Origin: Candidatus Poribacteria bacterium | GTDB taxonomy: Bacteria; Poribacteria; WGA-4E; PCPOR2b | Assembly (NCBI GenBank): GCA_022822005.1 | Contig: JAJECO010000003.1 | Span: 45,098 to 109,097 of the forward strand | Reading direction: 5' to 3' | Length of the DNA: 64,000 nt | In this document: one piece after another, positions 45,339-52,608 of the stretch | Layout of the letters: each line of letters starts with the position of its first letter | Numbering within the stretch: the stretch's first letter is position 1 | Notes under the pieces: generated by a model | What the model saw: the letters and a program-made list of their open reading frames with translations, nothing else | The model's database searches: none | What the model was told of the DNA's origin: nothing | Program-made: the position numbers and the translations under genes

Positions 45339-47720
45339 CTACTTTAGAATCGCCATTTTGCGCGTGGAGACATAATCGCCGGCTTTCAGGACATAGAAAT
45401 AGACACCGCTGGCGGCGCGCTCCCCCAGTTGGGTGCGTCCATCCCAGTAAGCGGCTTTATCCTTGCTGATGTACCGCCCGCGCGCTTTCATACCGAGACG
45501 CAATGTTCGTACCACCTGTCCTGATACATTGTAGATTTCAACTGAAACGGATGCGTCGTTCCCTAATTCGTAGGGGATCCAAACGTCTGGATTGAAAGGA
45601 TTTGGGTAACTTTGGAGCAGCTGCGTCTGCGCCGGGGCAGCGGGGGTATTCGCAGGGTTAAAGATGGGGGTAATCCCATTTGGGTCAATGCTCGGTGTAC
45701 CCATAATTCCAATTGCATCAACGGGCACAACCGCGTAATAGTAGCGGGTCTCCGCCGGATCGAAACGGCTGTTATCTACCTCGATATCTTGAAATATTGT
45801 GGTGTCCACAAAGTGCGTATCCGTCGCATCGACCCGCCCGACAATATTGATATCATCGTCGGGGATGCCGTCGTCATTCCGATCTGCGGCGTTCAGCACT
45901 TCCGCGGCGGTCTGGAACGGCTGCGGGTCATCGGTTTCGATTAACGATGTATACCGCTTGCGAACGATAACCACTTCACGGATATCCGTCAAATCTTCAA
46001 GTTCCCACTGCACACGCACACCTCTGTCGCCTTCTTGGGAGACTGTGGGCGCCGAAAGAGAGCCGACGGGCGGACGATCTGCCATATAACTGACTGCACC
46101 GCCGAAATAGCCCCCACCGGGGATAACAACCTGCTCGACATCCGGACGTAGATTTATCAGGATGAGTGTGATCTTCTTGATATCGCTCCCGAAATCGTTA
46201 AAGGTGATCTGCCCCTCTTGCGAACGTTGGTAGGTGAACGCCTCCCGGATCTCGTGCGTCCCGTCCTGTTTTTCAACGATAAACTTTGCCCCCCAACCGC
46301 GCACACCAAAAACATCGAGTCGATCCAATTCGTTCTGAATTTCCGCTCGATCTGTCACGTATAGCGCGCTCATGTCGATTGGAGCGATGTCGGCACCATC
46401 AACCTTGACGGCGAATTCGTTCATTACAACGCCGGGAGGCGGTTCAAAGACGATATAGCGTGCCGAGAACGGCTCCGGCATCGCCTCTGAATCAAAGTCA
46501 ACGCGGATAGGATAGCCGTCATGTATATCGCTCGGGTGGATGGCAACCGGCGGAAAGCGGTGTCCATTGAGGTAGTGCTTCCCATCATCCCGGTCATGCG
46601 TAAAGTAGTTCCACTCGGTAAAGGTCTTAAACGCCTCGACCAAGGTTGTACCGTGGTTGGTAAAGACATCTAAAAAATTGCCGAATTCGCGGTAAGAACC
46701 ATCCGTCGAATCCCCAAAAAACTGACGGACAATATCGACATCGAATCGTTCCGCCATATAAAATACCCAGATCACCGCTGCATATTCGCGCAACCCGACC
46801 CGACTGTCGAGCGCGAGGTCAGGCTGATCCAAAAAGATACCAAGCTGTCTGGGGTAATAGTCGTAGGCATCGGTCTCACCAATCTCGTCGGGATCCGGGA
46901 TATCATCGCGATCATCAATCAGTCCCCCATCGTATACTTTTGACTCAATCCATGTCGCTGACGCTTCCATGAACCAACCCGGCATCCGTGCGTTGTACGC
47001 GAACTGAATCCCGTGCAGAAATTCATGTGCGGTGGTTGTTTCTATGAAACGGTTGCCCTCTAACTTGCCAAAATAGTCATAGAGGCGGGAATTTATCGCA
47101 AAATAGGGACCGAAGGTCACGACGGTCGGTCGTATTCGCCCATGATACCAATTGGTCGTTGTAAAGCCGAGCGCCGGAAACTGAAACAGGTACACATCAT
47201 ATTTATGATTGCCGCCGTTGTACGCGTCCCAAAAATCGTCATAAGGCTTTTTGAACCCCATCAGATTGACCTCGACATGGAACGATTTCTCGTGTGCTTC
47301 GGCACAAAGATCGACGTAGTCCGGCACACCGTTCAACGGATTGACATCTTCGAGCGGTGGTGCATGTGGACCGACGGTGGTGTAGTGGAGCCGAAAATGG
47401 GGCGTATCAAACTTGTTTGGGAGATGGACGGAACCGTAAGGGCTGCCGGGTTGTCCGGGCCGCAGGAAAATCCCTTGAAACTCGCGCTGATAGATCGCTG
47501 GCAGGCGGTCCCAGTTCTGGGCGAGGATGTTGAAAGTGTCCGTAAAACATTCCTCAATCTCGCTGGGGGCATAACTCGATTTGGGATTGATATATTTTCG
47601 GGCGGATCGGATGGCGCTATACAACGCCGGATCAGGTGGACGTGCGTCAAGAAAGACGGGCGTGGCAGTGAGAATGCCGAAGGCCAATGACAGGGCTAGG
47701 ATAAATTTCAGGTAGTTCAC
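45339..47720 (-). CDS. Secreted zinc metalloprotease (MXAN_6640-like) with C-terminal FlgD-Ig/T9SS-CTD-like domain
   Basis: Signal peptide, NGVPDYV, AHEFLHGIQ with WFMEASATW, C-terminal LLQSYPNPFNP...SGVYFY. Confidence 0.8.
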   Translation of the reverse strand: MNYLKFILALSLAFGILTATPVFLDARPPDPALYSAIRSARKYINPKSSYAPSEIEECFTDTFNILAQNWDRLPAIYQREFQGIFLRPGQPGSPYGSVHLPNKFDTPHFRLHYTTVGPHAPPLEDVNPLNGVPDYVDLCAEAHEKSFHVEVNLMGFKKPYDDFWDAYNGGNHKYDVYLFQFPALGFTTTNWYHGRIRPTVVTFGPYFAINSRLYDYFGKLEGNRFIETTTAHEFLHGIQFAYNARMPGWFMEASATWIESKVYDGGLIDDRDDIPDPDEIGETDAYDYYPRQLGIFLDQPDLALDSRVGLREYAAVIWVFYMAERFDVDIVRQFFGDSTDGSYREFGNFLDVFTNHGTTLVEAFKTFTEWNYFTHDRDDGKHYLNGHRFPPVAIHPSDIHDGYPIRVDFDSEAMPEPFSARYIVFEPPPGVVMNEFAVKVDGADIAPIDMSALYVTDRAEIQNELDRLDVFGVRGWGAKFIVEKQDGTHEIREAFTYQRSQEGQITFNDFGSDIKKITLILINLRPDVEQVVIPGGGYFGGAVSYMADRPPVGSLSAPTVSQEGDRGVRVQWELEDLTDIREVVIVRKRYTSLIETDDPQPFQTAAEVLNAADRNDDGIPDDDINIVGRVDATDTHFVDTTIFQDIEVDNSRFDPAETRYYYAVVPVDAIGIMGTPSIDPNGITPIFNPANTPAAPAQTQLLQSYPNPFNPDVWIPYELGNDASVSVEIYNVSGQVVRTLRLGMKARGRYISKDKAAYWDGRTQLGERAASGVYFYVLKAGDYVSTRKMAILK

Positions 47721-48212: not shown

Positions 48213-50561
48213 ATGCAAACCCGACGTTTAATCAAGGTTGCTGTTGCCGTGATCGTTGTGGGAATGGTTGCCGGACTAAAACCGGTATGGGGAGTGAACA
48301 ACTGGCTCCAGCTCGATGACGGGCTGGTTATGGGACAGGTTTACGCGCTTGCAGCGCACGAATCTCGACTATACGCCGGCAGCGAGAACGGTGTATTTGT
48401 TTCTGAAGACAGAGGAGAAAGTTGGTTGCCAACTTCGTTCAATAATTCAGTTAGTACACTGACGGTCGATGGAGCCACCGTTTACGCAGGAACCTGGTCC
48501 CAAGGCGTGTTCCGATCCGATGATACCGGGGTGACCTGGAAACCGATTCGGGACGGATTACGCCTTCACGAACATGCGGGAGAACGCTATTATGGCAATG
48601 TTCGTCACATTCTTGCCACTGACAACAATATTATCAATGTGATGTACCATAATGGCACCTATACATCCACCGACCGTGGAGAGACATGGCACGACATTTC
48701 AACGGAGTGGATGGGGGGCAACAGCATCCACTTGATGACGGAGTTTGACGGCTATCTTTGGAGTGCAGTATCAAACGGTTCTATGTTTCGTTCACCTGAC
48801 AACGGCAAGACATGGGAAAAGCTCCACCGTTTTGCTCATGGTCATGTATACGCCTGGGCGGCACTCAACGGACGACTGTATGTTGGCGGTTACAGGGGGG
48901 TTGGCGTATGGAATGAAACTACGCGGACTTGGGAATATCCCATGACTGGACTTCCAATTGGTAACCTTCACGACCCAGACGCGCTGCCGTACGTCTTCAC
49001 GCTTGCCGTTCACGGTGGTCGGCTGTTCGCTGGGTTGCACAACACACACGGCGTTTATGTCTTTGATTTACAATCAGGAACTTGGTCCTCCGTTGGTTTG
49101 GAAGGACGGTCCGTTCTTTCTCTCCTCTCGCACGGATCGGCGCTCTATGCAGTTACGGAGGAGGATGGCATCTATTACTTAGTCCAAGTCAGGACAGTTT
49201 CCCCTCAAGAGGGCAGCGTTGAGGGTGGCGAACCGATCACGATTTTTGGCAGAGATTTTCCGTATAGGACAACTGTTACGATTGGCGGGAAACCAGTGAC
49301 AGACCTTCGGGTGACCAATACACTGATAACAGGGCTCACACCGCCGGGAGTCCTCGGCGAAGCAGATATTGAGGTTCATTTTCCAGATAGCGGCACTTTC
49401 CCCCTTGAAAGGTGGAAATTTTTTTACACAAACGTCCCGTCAATAACGTTGAAAATGGCTCCAACTCATGGTCCTCAGATGGGCGGTGGAACTGGTATTA
49501 TAACTGGCAGCGCTTTCGCCCCTGATGCGACAGTAAAAGTCGGGAATAATCCGGCGTCGGGTGTTGTCGTCACGCCAACGCTGATTCATTTCACAATTCC
49601 GTCCGGCACGATCGGAACGGCAGATGTTACCGTAACTAACCCAGATGGAAGGAAGTGGATTTTGGAGAATGGGTACACTTACGATTCATTTTCTCCCCCT
49701 GTCATTCGTGAGGTTTACCCGAACAAGGGACCTATCGACGGCGGCACAGAAGTAGTCATCAGAGGGAATTACTTTCTCGAAGGGGTCACAGTTATAATCG
49801 GTGGGATTCAAATAGAGCATTTGGATAGCCTCTCGCCGATCGAAATTCGCTTAAAGACGCCGCCATCACCCCCCGGCCGCACAGAAATTCGTGTGGTCAA
49901 TCCCGATGGTCAACAAGTTGTGCAAGAACACGGATTTACCTACAATGCGCCTCTCGATATTACCAGTGTTACCCCCAATGTGGGACCCATGGAAGGCGGA
50001 ACGCTGGTGACTATCACTGGAACAGGATTTCACCCCATCGCCCGGAGTACTCAGGTTACAATTGATGGGATACCTGCATCAACCATTATCGACATGTCAT
50101 TAACAAGAGTGATAATCAAGACACCCGCGGCAAAGACCCCCGGTACGAAGGATGTTGCCTTAAGGAACCCCAACGGAGAGGAAGTTACGCTTATAGGCGG
50201 GTTTACCTATAACACTTCATTGGCAGTCGAGTCGAAAGGGAAGTTGTTGACCTCCTTCGGTTACGTGAAACAGACCCGTTTACTGCAAAATTATCCCAAC
50301 CCGTTCAACCCAGAAACTTGGATACCGTACCAACTGGCAACGGAAGCGGATGTTACCATCGTTATTTACGATAGCGGAGGACAACGGGTACGGACGCTTA
50401 AGTTAGGGTCTCAACCACCGGGACTATACCTTACTCAAGAGAAAGCAGCGTATTGGGAGGGACGGGATGATACCGGGGAATGGGTGTCCAGTGGTACATA
50501 CTTCTACTACCTGCAAGCGGGGAATTACTCGGCAACAAAGAAAATGATTATACTAAAGTAG
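48213..50561 (+). CDS. Secreted protein: BNR/Asp-box propeller, four IPT/TIG domains, FlgD-Ig/T9SS-CTD-like domain
   Basis: S.D.G.TW repeats; P..GP..GGT.V.I.G..F and V.NPDG repeats; LLQNYPNPFNPETWIPYQL. Confidence 0.85.
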   Translation: MQTRRLIKVAVAVIVVGMVAGLKPVWGVNNWLQLDDGLVMGQVYALAAHESRLYAGSENGVFVSEDRGESWLPTSFNNSVSTLTVDGATVYAGTWSQGVFRSDDTGVTWKPIRDGLRLHEHAGERYYGNVRHILATDNNIINVMYHNGTYTSTDRGETWHDISTEWMGGNSIHLMTEFDGYLWSAVSNGSMFRSPDNGKTWEKLHRFAHGHVYAWAALNGRLYVGGYRGVGVWNETTRTWEYPMTGLPIGNLHDPDALPYVFTLAVHGGRLFAGLHNTHGVYVFDLQSGTWSSVGLEGRSVLSLLSHGSALYAVTEEDGIYYLVQVRTVSPQEGSVEGGEPITIFGRDFPYRTTVTIGGKPVTDLRVTNTLITGLTPPGVLGEADIEVHFPDSGTFPLERWKFFYTNVPSITLKMAPTHGPQMGGGTGIITGSAFAPDATVKVGNNPASGVVVTPTLIHFTIPSGTIGTADVTVTNPDGRKWILENGYTYDSFSPPVIREVYPNKGPIDGGTEVVIRGNYFLEGVTVIIGGIQIEHLDSLSPIEIRLKTPPSPPGRTEIRVVNPDGQQVVQEHGFTYNAPLDITSVTPNVGPMEGGTLVTITGTGFHPIARSTQVTIDGIPASTIIDMSLTRVIIKTPAAKTPGTKDVALRNPNGEEVTLIGGFTYNTSLAVESKGKLLTSFGYVKQTRLLQNYPNPFNPETWIPYQLATEADVTIVIYDSGGQRVRTLKLGSQPPGLYLTQEKAAYWEGRDDTGEWVSSGTYFYYLQAGNYSATKKMIILK

Positions 50562-50661
50562 GGCGGTCGGCGGAGATTTTCTTTAACCTATTCATACGTG
50601 TGATACACATGTCGCCCCACCCCGCTCCCGATTTCATCAAGACAGGCGGGATTCAAAGCAA

Positions 50662-51399
50662 TTAGGGAGTGAATGTCTCAAGAATAGGAGGCGGTTGGCT
50701 ATTTTGCAAAAGAGCCAGCGCGGCTGAGATGATTTTATGCTGTAGGACAGGGTTGTTCGGCTCGCCAAGCGGGTAGCCGAAACGGTACGGCACAGCGAGT
50801 GCACGGGGCGGTTTGACCTGCTCGGTAATTTCCCGAACCAGCGTGATCGAAACGGTTGAGATGCCGACTTCCTCGATCGCACGTTGGATCAGCCCAACGG
50901 ACTGATTGCATAGCGGTCAAACGGGTGTCAGAAATACGACATCGACGCCATCTGCCTTGAGGTGCGCCCCAACCTCTGGGGCGGTGCGTTTGATTAAACG
51001 TCCCGGAGCGGACTGCGATCCCATAAAGCTGAAATGCCGGTCGTTGAGCTCCCCGATTTTGTCCGCCCCTTCTAACTCACGAAAGCGATCAAGCGGAAAC
51101 GCCAGATTCCGATCCGCAAAGCTGCCGGTCTGATCGTATACAGTGCTGCTGTGTGCAGTCGTCAACGCTTGCACATCAACGGTGTTAGGGATTTCACGAT
51201 AGGAGTAATCGCCGCTCATGAAGTGATCATCAAACGGCTCTTGAGACGGTGTATGTAAACCGGCGGTGGTGACCAAGGCAACTCGGCATTCCGTTAGGGG
51301 TCGCTGCAGCGGGGTATGCGGCGTTGTATCGTAACGTCGATAGCGATAGAGTTTCATGAAGATGCGAAGTTTGAAGTCAAGTTCATCAAAGGAGGGCAC
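50662..51399 (-). CDS. PrdB/GrdB-like reductase selenoprotein (UGA read as Sec at 50917-50919)
   Basis: ALVTTAGLH, D.N..FPLDR and HFSFMG motifs; frame continues past the TGA as TPV-U-PLCNQSVGLIQRAIEEVGISTVSI...VKPPRAL.VPYRFGYPLG to TAA at 50662; GTG start after AGAAGGA. Confidence 0.85.
50888..50906 (-). promoter_or_regulatory. Candidate bacterial SECIS hairpin
   Basis: ATCAGTCC-GTT-GGGCTGAT stem-loop starting 11 nt after the UGA, G leading the apical loop. Confidence 0.6.
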
Positions 51400-51467
51400 G
51401 CTGGGGTCCTTCTCTGCATTGTCTAAGTCATACGCAGATAAATATTTCAACTATATTCTTCATGTCA

Positions 51468-51495
51468 ATTATAGCATAAATTGAGATGATGTCAA
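51468..51495 (-). promoter_or_regulatory. Sigma70 promoter of the selenoprotein gene
   Basis: TTGACA-N16-TATAAT with TGn extension. Confidence 0.65.
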
Positions 51496-51549
51496 ATGAG
51501 CTCTTTCTTATCTGAACACGAACTATTTCCGAAACCGAGGTATTCGATA

Positions 51550-52608
51550 ATGGCAGATTCAAAACGAATTGAGCATCATGAACTGATTCAATTCTTCAAA
51601 GAGGCACTGATGGCTGTTGGTACGCCGGCACATGTAGCAGAGGTAGAGGCGGAGATTGGCGCGGAGGTTGATCTTTGCGGCGTACATTCGCACGGCGTGA
51701 GATTGCTGCCGGTGATGGTCGAAAACATCCGTACTGGACTGACGAACCCAGATCCGAAAGTGGAGGTTCTTTCGGAGCAACCGGCTTCGGTGCTCGCGGA
51801 GACAGACCGAGGCATCGGGCGTTATGTTTCCGCTGTGGGGATGGATATGGCAATCGAACGCGCCAAGAGTTACGGGATCGGTGCAGCCACCATCCGGGGC
51901 GTGGCACACTGGGGGCGCGGATATAGCTACGCAGCACGGGCGGCGCGAGCCGGTATGATCGGTCTAGCGTACACAAACGCTATCATTAACTTCCCGGCGT
52001 GGGGAACCTCCGCGCCCTCTCTGGGCAACAACCCGATGGCTATCGGCATTCCCGTGGGTGCAGGGGAAGAACCGGTCGTGTTAGACATCGCCATGACGCA
52101 GATTGCGATCGGCCGGGTCCGTGAAGCCGCCGAAACGGGACAGCGTGTTCCTATTGGATGGGGGTTAGATGCAGCGGGCAAACCCACAACGGATCCGGAA
52201 GCAATCGTCGAGTCTCAACGCTTTCTGCCGATGGGTGAATACAAGGGATCCGGTTTGGCGTTCATGATCGAGCTGCTGACGGCGGGCTTGGCGGGCGGAA
52301 TGCTCTGCTATGAGTTAGGAACCGAGGGGCGCCCAACGGACACCTCCGGAGGTTCATCAAAACTTTTCATCGCTATACGACCTCACGGGGATTGGTTAAA
52401 CGAAAGGACCGCGTCGCTCAAATCCTACCTAAAGTCCGCACCGCCGGCAGAAGAACAGGGCGAAGCACAGTGGCCCGGCGAGGGCAGTTATCGCCACCGC
52501 ACCGAGTATCTCGCAGAAGGAATTCCAATCCCCCTCAAGTTAGCAGAGGAGATGGAGGAACTCGCACAAGAGTTATCTGTGGCGTTAAATTGGATGGATT
52601 GTCGCTGA
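51550..52608 (+). CDS. Ldh_2-family oxidoreductase (ComC/DpkA/YiaK/AllD-like)
   Basis: GVHSHG, HWGR, LGNNPMAIG, LDIAM, PTTDP, YKGSGL. Confidence 0.9.
   Translation: MADSKRIEHHELIQFFKEALMAVGTPAHVAEVEAEIGAEVDLCGVHSHGVRLLPVMVENIRTGLTNPDPKVEVLSEQPASVLAETDRGIGRYVSAVGMDMAIERAKSYGIGAATIRGVAHWGRGYSYAARAARAGMIGLAYTNAIINFPAWGTSAPSLGNNPMAIGIPVGAGEEPVVLDIAMTQIAIGRVREAAETGQRVPIGWGLDAAGKPTTDPEAIVESQRFLPMGEYKGSGLAFMIELLTAGLAGGMLCYELGTEGRPTDTSGGSSKLFIAIRPHGDWLNERTASLKSYLKSAPPAEEQGEAQWPGEGSYRHRTEYLAEGIPIPLKLAEEMEELAQELSVALNWMDCR

Follow-up and report, generated by a model that had tools for sequence, protein, structure and literature searches.

Among the described relatives of the gene reported here is clostridial PrdB, in which selenocysteine (Sec) is described as the nucleophile (PMC11229817, Fig. 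1 legend). Active proline reductase requires the complex of PrdA with PrdB, and a U151C variant of the selenoprotein is inactive (PMC11229817). A wider family was catalogued in the marine selenoproteomes from 2005 onwards. Under the name 'proline reductase PrdB' (pfam07355, UxxC motif) it is listed, with 42 sequences, as one of the commonest selenoprotein families in the Sargasso Sea (PMC1088965), and the Global Ocean Sampling (GOS) data added 235 Sec and 110 cysteine (Cys) forms (PMC2398784, Table 2, from which the definition of the marine family used here is taken). The family is also listed in reviews (PMC9312934, PMC13188914), and UxxC stands at the family position in the tables of PMC2398784 and PMC13188914. 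Here we describe an ordinary further member of this family, encoded on the minus strand at positions 50662-51399 of a 64,000-nucleotide stretch of contig JAJECO010000003.1 (hereafter the window) from a Candidatus Poribacteria bacterium. In our judgement these positions very probably form a single gene for a stand-alone, 245-residue GRDB/PrdB-like selenoprotein whose internal UGA is read as Sec.

An open reading frame (ORF) at 50917..51450 (minus strand), 177 amino acids long when counted from a TTG, ends in ...FLTPV-TGA. Beyond this TGA the same frame stays open for exactly 84 sense codons (PLCNQSVGLIQRAIEEVGISTVSITLVREITEQVKPPRALAVPYRFGYPLGEP...TFTP; PLCNQSVGLIQRAIEE...ETFTP), up to a TAA at 50662-50664. 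The start was placed at the GTG at 51397-51399 (MPSFDELDF...) from where the homologues begin, and with this homologue-supported start the product comes to 160 residues, Sec and a further 84, making 245 residues from 245 codons. That 50662..51399 (minus strand) is the complete coding sequence is supported by its translation, its homologues, the Pfam GRDB and NCBIfam PrdB models and a single, confidently modelled domain. The in-frame TGA (50917..50919, minus strand), which is aligned with Cys in homologues and kept as TGA in relatives, is the codon of the predicted Sec161, first residue of a U-P-L-C motif (UxxC) about two thirds along the protein. The TGC at 50908..50910 (minus strand) encodes Cys164, the putative resolving Cys of the motif, which is invariant in one alignment (A3) and is Cys in 9 of the 10 full-length homologues of another (A1). 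An earlier note, made from the letters of the window, had described a 177-residue ORF ending TPV-TGA, an 84-codon open frame after it, a UxxC motif, an 8-bp hairpin with a G-led loop 11 nt past the UGA and one read-through product of about 245 amino acids. All of these are present on the minus strand, the motif reading U-P-L-C, the hairpin having eight pairs and a GUU loop and the length following from the homologue-placed GTG. Its expectation that gene callers would truncate the gene was also borne out, the closest database entries being 156-160 amino acids long and ending in ...TPV. Protein queries in the searches reported below covered 50668-51399, with the final proline left off.

The TGA is retained throughout the relatives of this gene. 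The pattern P-[VI]-TGA-P-x-C was found in 29/29 loci of related genomes. In a search of 176 genomes of the phylum (relatives named Candidatus Poribacteria), the gene was matched in 140 at E <= 1e-10, including 112/112 genomes of one family (f2) and 23/28 of another (f1); almost all genomes of these two families retain the Sec form. Every listed place covering at least 200 query residues has the in-frame TGA, and the only three listed places that lack it are fragments of 69-101 residues. Eighty loci on named genome contigs (77 titled Poribacteria, 2 'uncultured bacterium' and 1 Latescibacterota) gave the TGA in 78, the remaining 2 being unmatched by the search pattern. A further 80 loci from metagenomes, gathered using an alignment of Cys forms, carry TGA at the Sec column in 74 cases, TGC in 5 and TGT in 1. 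Among 10 full-length database proteins, the same column holds Cys in 9 and tryptophan (W) in 1. The in-frame UGA therefore stands at a position occupied by Cys in homologues, as in other selenoprotein genes, and the Cys-for-Sec homologues that the earlier note had suggested looking for exist both in the database (9/10) and among the metagenome loci (6/80).

Substitution patterns indicate that the frame downstream of the TGA is under protein-coding selection. Compared over the 66 codons past the TGA, 29 sequences differ per site by 0.161 at the first codon position, 0.095 at the second and 0.515 at the third. Synonymous codon differences outnumbered non-synonymous ones by 10720 to 5139 after the TGA and by 6501 to 4016 before it. 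No further stop was found within these 66 codons in any of the 29 sequences, and the other two frames are closed in 29/29 and 28/29 of them. In distant relatives the half after the TGA is the better conserved one (for example 75% vs 60% in locus L050 and 54% vs 46% in L056), and full-length homologues share 47-55% identity over the last 84 residues. Homology past the TGA is equally evident from the PrdB model TIGR04483, which aligns with residues 45-250 of the read-through product, across Sec. The nearest in-frame start codon past the TGA lies 42 codons downstream.

Bacterial selenocysteine insertion sequence (SECIS) elements, of which the one in E. coli fdhF is an example, are stem-loops inside the coding sequence that start about 11 nt past the UGA and expose a G and a U in a small apical loop, some 20 nt from that codon. 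A SECIS-like hairpin, AUCAGUCC-GUU-GGGCUGAU, was found at 50888..50906 (minus strand), its 5' arm at 50906-50899, its loop at 50898-50896 and its 3' arm at 50895-50888. It has eight pairs including one G-U, begins 11 nt past the UGA and forms within the minimum-free-energy fold. Across 26 distinct Poribacteria rows, 94.2% of hairpin cells are paired and 2 pairs show compensatory change. We then extended the comparison to 86 distinct Sec-form rows, combining 18 of the 29 Poribacteria rows (11 near-identical rows of the window's own genus were left out) with the 68 distinct sequences among the 74 metagenome Sec forms. In this alignment 93.2% of cells are paired and both-side changes occur in 3 of the 8 pairs, in 18 cells. 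The observed paired share and covariation score were reached by 0/500 shuffles and the number of covarying pairs by 3/500, and slid registers pair at 4.9-47.4%. One of the exchanges, U-A to C-G at columns 15/31 (12 rows), is a synonymous His/Asn codon change coupled to an Ile-to-Val replacement. Of the 74 Sec forms, 73 have GUN (Val) as the loop codon and one has GGC, whereas 6/6 Cys forms have GCN (Ala), so that the exposed G-U is lost where Sec is not needed.

The hairpin also has a counterpart elsewhere in the same genome. The pattern TGA-N(8-14)-CAGTCC-N(3-5)-GGRCTG occurs at exactly two sites in the 6.0-Mb assembly, here and directly after the Sec codon of selD, and the reversed control gave 0. 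In selD the hairpin reads UCAGUCC-AGUU-GGACUGG; its stem is nearly identical to that of the PrdB-like gene, and the spacing is the same. The case for the hairpin is therefore made by conservation, covariation and the selD twin, its energy being unremarkable, and together they support a conserved SECIS-like stem-loop downstream of the UGA, as in selenoprotein genes. A longer lower stem (columns 5-11 with 37-42) was also considered and set aside as weak, being 76.9% paired with one pair mostly unpaired.

The genome, which is 97.8% complete, encodes the whole Sec machinery that the earlier note's proposal called for, with tRNA-Sec, selA, selB and selD all above curated cut-offs. For tRNA-Sec the score is 76.2 bits (cut-off 47), and ARAGORN calls SeC(tca); selB (369 bits) and selA (602 bits) both adjoin the tRNA on one contig. 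The selD gene (370 bits) lies on a separate contig (G000:C66:75130-76050, plus strand, locus L025) and is itself a selenoprotein gene, with its own in-frame TGA (...KTCG-TGA-AAKV) followed by the SECIS-like hairpin.

Profile searches placed the protein in the GRDB family. Pfam GRDB (PF07355) matched residues 36-175 of the 261-residue reading at 46.3 bits, above its cut-off of 22, with the model ending at Sec (profile positions 207-345 of 347), and PF07355 is single-copy in the genome. The best NCBIfam match was the PrdB equivalog TIGR04483, at 151.9 bits against a cut-off of 300, and this alignment continues across Sec for 72 residues beyond it. TIGR01918, the selenoprotein B subfamily of glycine/betaine/sarcosine/D-proline reductases, reached 56.3 bits, below its cut-off of 65.45. 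The GrdB, GrdF and GrdH models (TIGR01917, NF040794, NF040795) reached 52-67 bits against cut-offs of 602-800, and only the C-terminal half of the GrdB model TIGR01917 was matched (52.1 vs 602.2 bits). The label 'PrdB/GrdB-like' given in the earlier note is thus apt as a family resemblance through PF07355, closest to PrdB; it does not extend to a PrdB or GrdB equivalog, nor were the partner subunits found. The features that define the marine 'proline reductase PrdB' family, namely a pfam07355 match, UxxC with Sec and Cys homologues, are all present. Database names vary, homologues being called 'D-proline reductase (dithiol) PrdB' in some sources and the truncated Poribacteria entries 'glycine/sarcosine/betaine reductase selenoprotein B family protein' at NCBI.

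A structural model of the read-through product, built from a 20-sequence alignment, forms one alpha/beta domain with a predicted local distance difference test (pLDDT) score of 90.9 and a predicted template modelling (pTM) score of 0.92. In the model, Sec161 comes after strand 154-158 and stands at the N-terminus of helix 162-177, and two more strands and three helices follow. Past Sec, P162, C164, Q166, E176 and a PPRAL motif (197-201) are invariant. No relative was found in the PDB by sequence (best E 0.52, ribosomal protein L3), nor any Foldseek match to the PDB at E <= 0.001. A wide VIA-align search returned LacI-type sugar-binding domains, microcystinase C and short-chain dehydrogenases (best Z 8.9, 8.6 and 8.2), a generic Rossmann-like resemblance that was discarded as a functional lead.

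We searched the genome for the other subunits of the known reductases. There was no match to PrdA/GrdE (PF09338), PrdA (TIGR04480) or GrdA (PF04723) in the 97.8%-complete assembly, and for PrdC (TIGR04481, cut-off 490) the genome offered nothing above 39.4 bits. With neither the pyruvoyl partner nor the other subunits found, the protein is unlikely to be part of a D-proline or glycine reductase, and it would be better described as a stand-alone PrdB-like selenoprotein, acting alone or with some other partner.

The neighbours of the gene in the window are a divergent Ldh_2-family dehydrogenase (51496-52608) and a BNR/TIG secreted protein. The best NCBIfam matches of the Ldh_2 protein are sugar-acid dehydrogenases, below cut-off. 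It was considered as a conserved partner, with a possible link through pyrroline-2-carboxylate, and rejected, since the adjacency does not extend beyond the window's own genus. Genes for Gfo/Idh/MocA-type oxidoreductases flank the PrdB-like gene on the same strand in 59 of 78 Poribacteria loci (within L059-L138, e.g. L074:6086-7141), immediately upstream in 46 of those loci and immediately downstream in 44. In most Poribacteria the PrdB-like gene is the middle member of a three-gene unit with two such dehydrogenase genes. Because these loci are kin, the arrangement counts as one event or a few; it has been lost in the window's own genus, where the divergent Ldh_2 gene is found instead. The 80 metagenome loci have no common neighbour, since their 205 neighbouring ORFs fall into 139 clusters, the largest of which occurs in 11 loci. 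The recurrent neighbours there are a fused TIGR04283+TIGR04282 'arsenosugar biosynthesis glycosyltransferase' (11/80, both models above their cut-offs), an MFS transporter (9/80), a MerA-like FAD disulfide oxidoreductase (NF004991, 710 vs 620 bits; 8/80), a weak match to a UshA-like (seleno)protein (5/80) and DUF547 (4/80). Homologues of some of these neighbours are present in the window's genome but not near the PrdB-like gene. A peroxiredoxin neighbour, looked for with one query, was seen in 0/80 Poribacteria and 2/80 metagenome loci. The arsenosugar-type and MerA-like neighbours, found beside a minority of the non-Poribacteria copies (e.g. L205:782-2194, L207:5170-6720), offer a possible functional lead. 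Further from the gene, the window encodes large secreted proteins at 45339-47720 (minus strand) and 48213-50561 (plus strand) with C-terminal Por_Secre_tail/FlgD_ig domains (type IX secretion sorting), one of them with BNR and four IPT/TIG repeats.

Several observations tell against the reading of 50662-51399 as a stand-alone selenoprotein gene. The folding energy of the hairpin is ordinary (z = -0.56), with 53/200 shuffles folding equally well, and an Rfam scan of 50300-51800 found no family, returning only 3 chance matches to small nucleolar and long non-coding RNAs (E > 2). The hairpin also overlaps a highly conserved peptide, NQSVGLI, and the 6 Cys forms pair 6.0-6.4 of the 8 positions in register, compared with 7.45 in the Sec forms; protein constraint therefore explains some of the hairpin's conservation. 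The case for Sec insertion is made from sequence, the host organism being uncultured. In 4 metatranscriptome libraries from 3 studies there are contigs, 85-95% alike, that cover the gene, and several of them bridge the TGA (e.g. 50675-51508); these contigs belong to relatives and may contain DNA, and as such they prove neither transcription nor strand. As to function, the searches for PrdA/GrdE and GrdA were silent in all 14 control genomes too, so these partners count as not found and not as proven absent. Both the catalytic mechanism and the lack of partners are what we infer, and the neighbours differ between lineages.

These points have to be set against what each alternative would require. 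Were the TGA a real stop, the locus would hold either a nonsense-mutated pseudogene or a genuine 160-residue protein, with the downstream part untranslated or made separately. The database gene calls do end at the TGA, the hairpin energy alone is unremarkable and the downstream 83 residues alone match no Pfam family. Yet genomes across the phylum and 74/80 metagenome relatives carry the TGA at this very codon, the remaining relatives having Cys, and the sequence beyond it changes as coding sequence does, gains no further stop in 29/29 sequences and is better conserved than the sequence before it. Separate translation would have to begin 42 codons past the TGA at the earliest, and the modelled fold needs the downstream strands and helices; we regard a real stop as extremely improbable. 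Scarcely easier to sustain, and in our view still very improbable, is that UGA is read as Trp, Cys or Gly through a changed code or near-cognate suppression and not as Sec. One homologue, P0019, has W at the Sec column (PVWPMC), and this is most simply explained as TGA translated as Trp by its source. In the window, TGA terminates 3 of 7 neighbouring genes with full-length Pfam matches, so the genetic code is standard and there has been no genome-wide recoding. The genome has the full set of Sec genes, its only other copy of the hairpin core follows the Sec codon of selD, and the homologues without TGA have Cys, the usual Sec/Cys exchange. Four independent lines of evidence, namely the machinery, the conserved codon, coding selection on the downstream frame and the hairpin, indicate that the internal TGA is almost certainly read as selenocysteine.

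The remaining alternative concerns function: the protein would serve as selenoprotein B in a working Stickland-type reductase of D-proline (PrdB) or of glycine/betaine/sarcosine (GrdB). This reading would account for the PrdB model being the best NCBIfam match (151.9 bits), for UxxC standing where the tables of PMC2398784 and PMC13188914 place it in the family, and for the 'D-proline reductase (dithiol) PrdB' names in some sources. The score is nevertheless half the PrdB cut-off of 300 and far under the 602-800 of GrdB, GrdF and GrdH. PrdA/GrdE, GrdA and a real PrdC were not found in the 97.8%-complete genome, whereas proline reductase activity requires the PrdA-PrdB complex (PMC11229817). The neighbours are, moreover, sugar-type dehydrogenases or unrelated genes, and we consider a working reductase of either kind improbable.

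For the stand-alone selenoprotein that we favour, the anatomy of the locus suggests the following mechanism. The UGA at 50917-50919 would be decoded as Sec when the hairpin 11 nt downstream presents its G-U-containing apical loop to the genome's SelB, which would deliver Sec-tRNA(Sec) made by SelA and SelD. In the protein, Sec161 would sit at the helix start after a beta strand of the Rossmann-like domain and be paired with Cys164 as a redox-active U-x-x-C. Analogy with PrdB and GrdB suggests Sec as the nucleophile, attacking either a substrate carbon or a disulfide-type bond; the adduct would next be resolved by Cys164 as a selenenylsulfide, to be re-reduced by a cellular thiol or an FAD-disulfide reductase system. 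GrdB-family proteins have been proposed to cleave a C-F bond (PMC10838667), so the chemistry of this family need not be limited to amino acids. It is conceivable, though we would give it rather less than even chances, that stand-alone PrdB-like proteins constitute a separate, partner-less class of Sec-dependent reductases with a substrate of their own and are not proline reductases. The neighbouring genes (Gfo/Idh/MocA-type, and arsenosugar-type or MerA-like in a minority of soil and sediment lineages) hint at reductive chemistry on sugar-derived or organo-arsenic/selenium compounds, in which the UxxC pair might be recycled by a flavin disulfide reductase.

Other features of the locus and the genome were recorded alongside. 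A consensus scan found a sigma-70-type promoter-like site, TTGACA-16-TATAAT (12/12 with TG), at 51468..51495 (minus strand), about 70 nt upstream of the GTG; this is no more than a match to a pattern. Among the RNA-library contigs, two of higher depth and about 2.2 kb (runs X15 and X18) match only the 44 bases around the TGA and hairpin (50882-50925), with divergent sequence to either side. Their probable source is a more distant homologue in which the conserved Sec-codon and SECIS stretch is shared. Elsewhere in the genome, a molybdopterin oxidoreductase of the formate dehydrogenase alpha type (Fer2/Fer4/Molybdopterin; locus L141, G000:C10:7751-10546, plus strand) has one in-frame TGA at ...NCSRA-TGA-HAPTV followed by a hairpin and is likely an FdhA selenoprotein. 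An AhpC/TSA-family peroxiredoxin-like ORF (L142, G000:C51:164704-165312, minus strand) has an in-frame TGA at ...WRGAY-TGA-PKD followed by the hairpin UUCUCC-AGUU-GGAGAA and is a candidate Sec peroxiredoxin. In-frame TGAs in a UxxC context were also seen in a DUF3179 protein (L144, G000:C60:104144-105208, plus strand; TTW-TGA-PLC) and in a protein with an N-terminal SnoaL domain (L143, G000:C50:18533-19663, minus strand; SPG-TGA-PKC). Both of the latter came from a loose genome-wide hairpin scan that was unspecific, with more than 100 of its 116 candidates unsupported. The presence of several candidate selenoproteins fits the enrichment of selA and selB reported for sponge-symbiont bins (PMC5649159).

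For annotation, the consequences of the Sec codon are direct. Public Poribacteria gene calls stop at it, giving products of 156-160 amino acids, so proteomes, pangenomes and metabolic models carry a broken protein. The 'proline reductase' label may in addition mislead towards proline fermentation in sponge symbionts. On the role of the family outside clostridial proline fermentation, the locus adds little that makes the question of its substrate newly testable.

Compared with known systems, the hairpin resembles bacterial SECIS elements in its onset about 11 nt past the UGA, in the G-U of its small apical loop and in its position inside the coding sequence. It departs from them in matching no Rfam model and in having a loop of only 3 nt (GUU), which is 5 nt (GGUCG) in many relatives. 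With GrdB, GrdF and GrdH the protein shares the Pfam family PF07355 and a Sec at the equivalent position. Those models span about 430 residues, however, whereas the protein here corresponds to their C-terminal half only, and GrdA and GrdE were not found. The likeness to clostridial PrdB is closer: the two resemble each other in size (about 26 kDa; Sec151 in C. difficile, Sec161 here) and in UxxC (PMC11229817), their sequences align across Sec, and the same Sec-nucleophile chemistry is expected. It differs from clostridial PrdB in scoring 151.9 bits where the model asks for 300, in that PrdA, PrdC and the prd operon context were not found, and in its host, which belongs to a sponge-symbiont lineage and is not a Stickland fermenter. 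From the marine PrdB selenoproteins, which are abundant in non-fermenting marine and environmental bacteria (PMC1088965, PMC2398784), nothing substantive separates it; Poribacteria are not named in the passages of these two papers that were consulted, and the name that they use implies a proline reduction that the gene content of this genome does not support. The gene has the same Pfam family, the same UxxC motif and the same mixture of Sec and Cys forms as the marine selenoproteins (PMC1088965, PMC2398784), and by every feature tested it is a member of their family.

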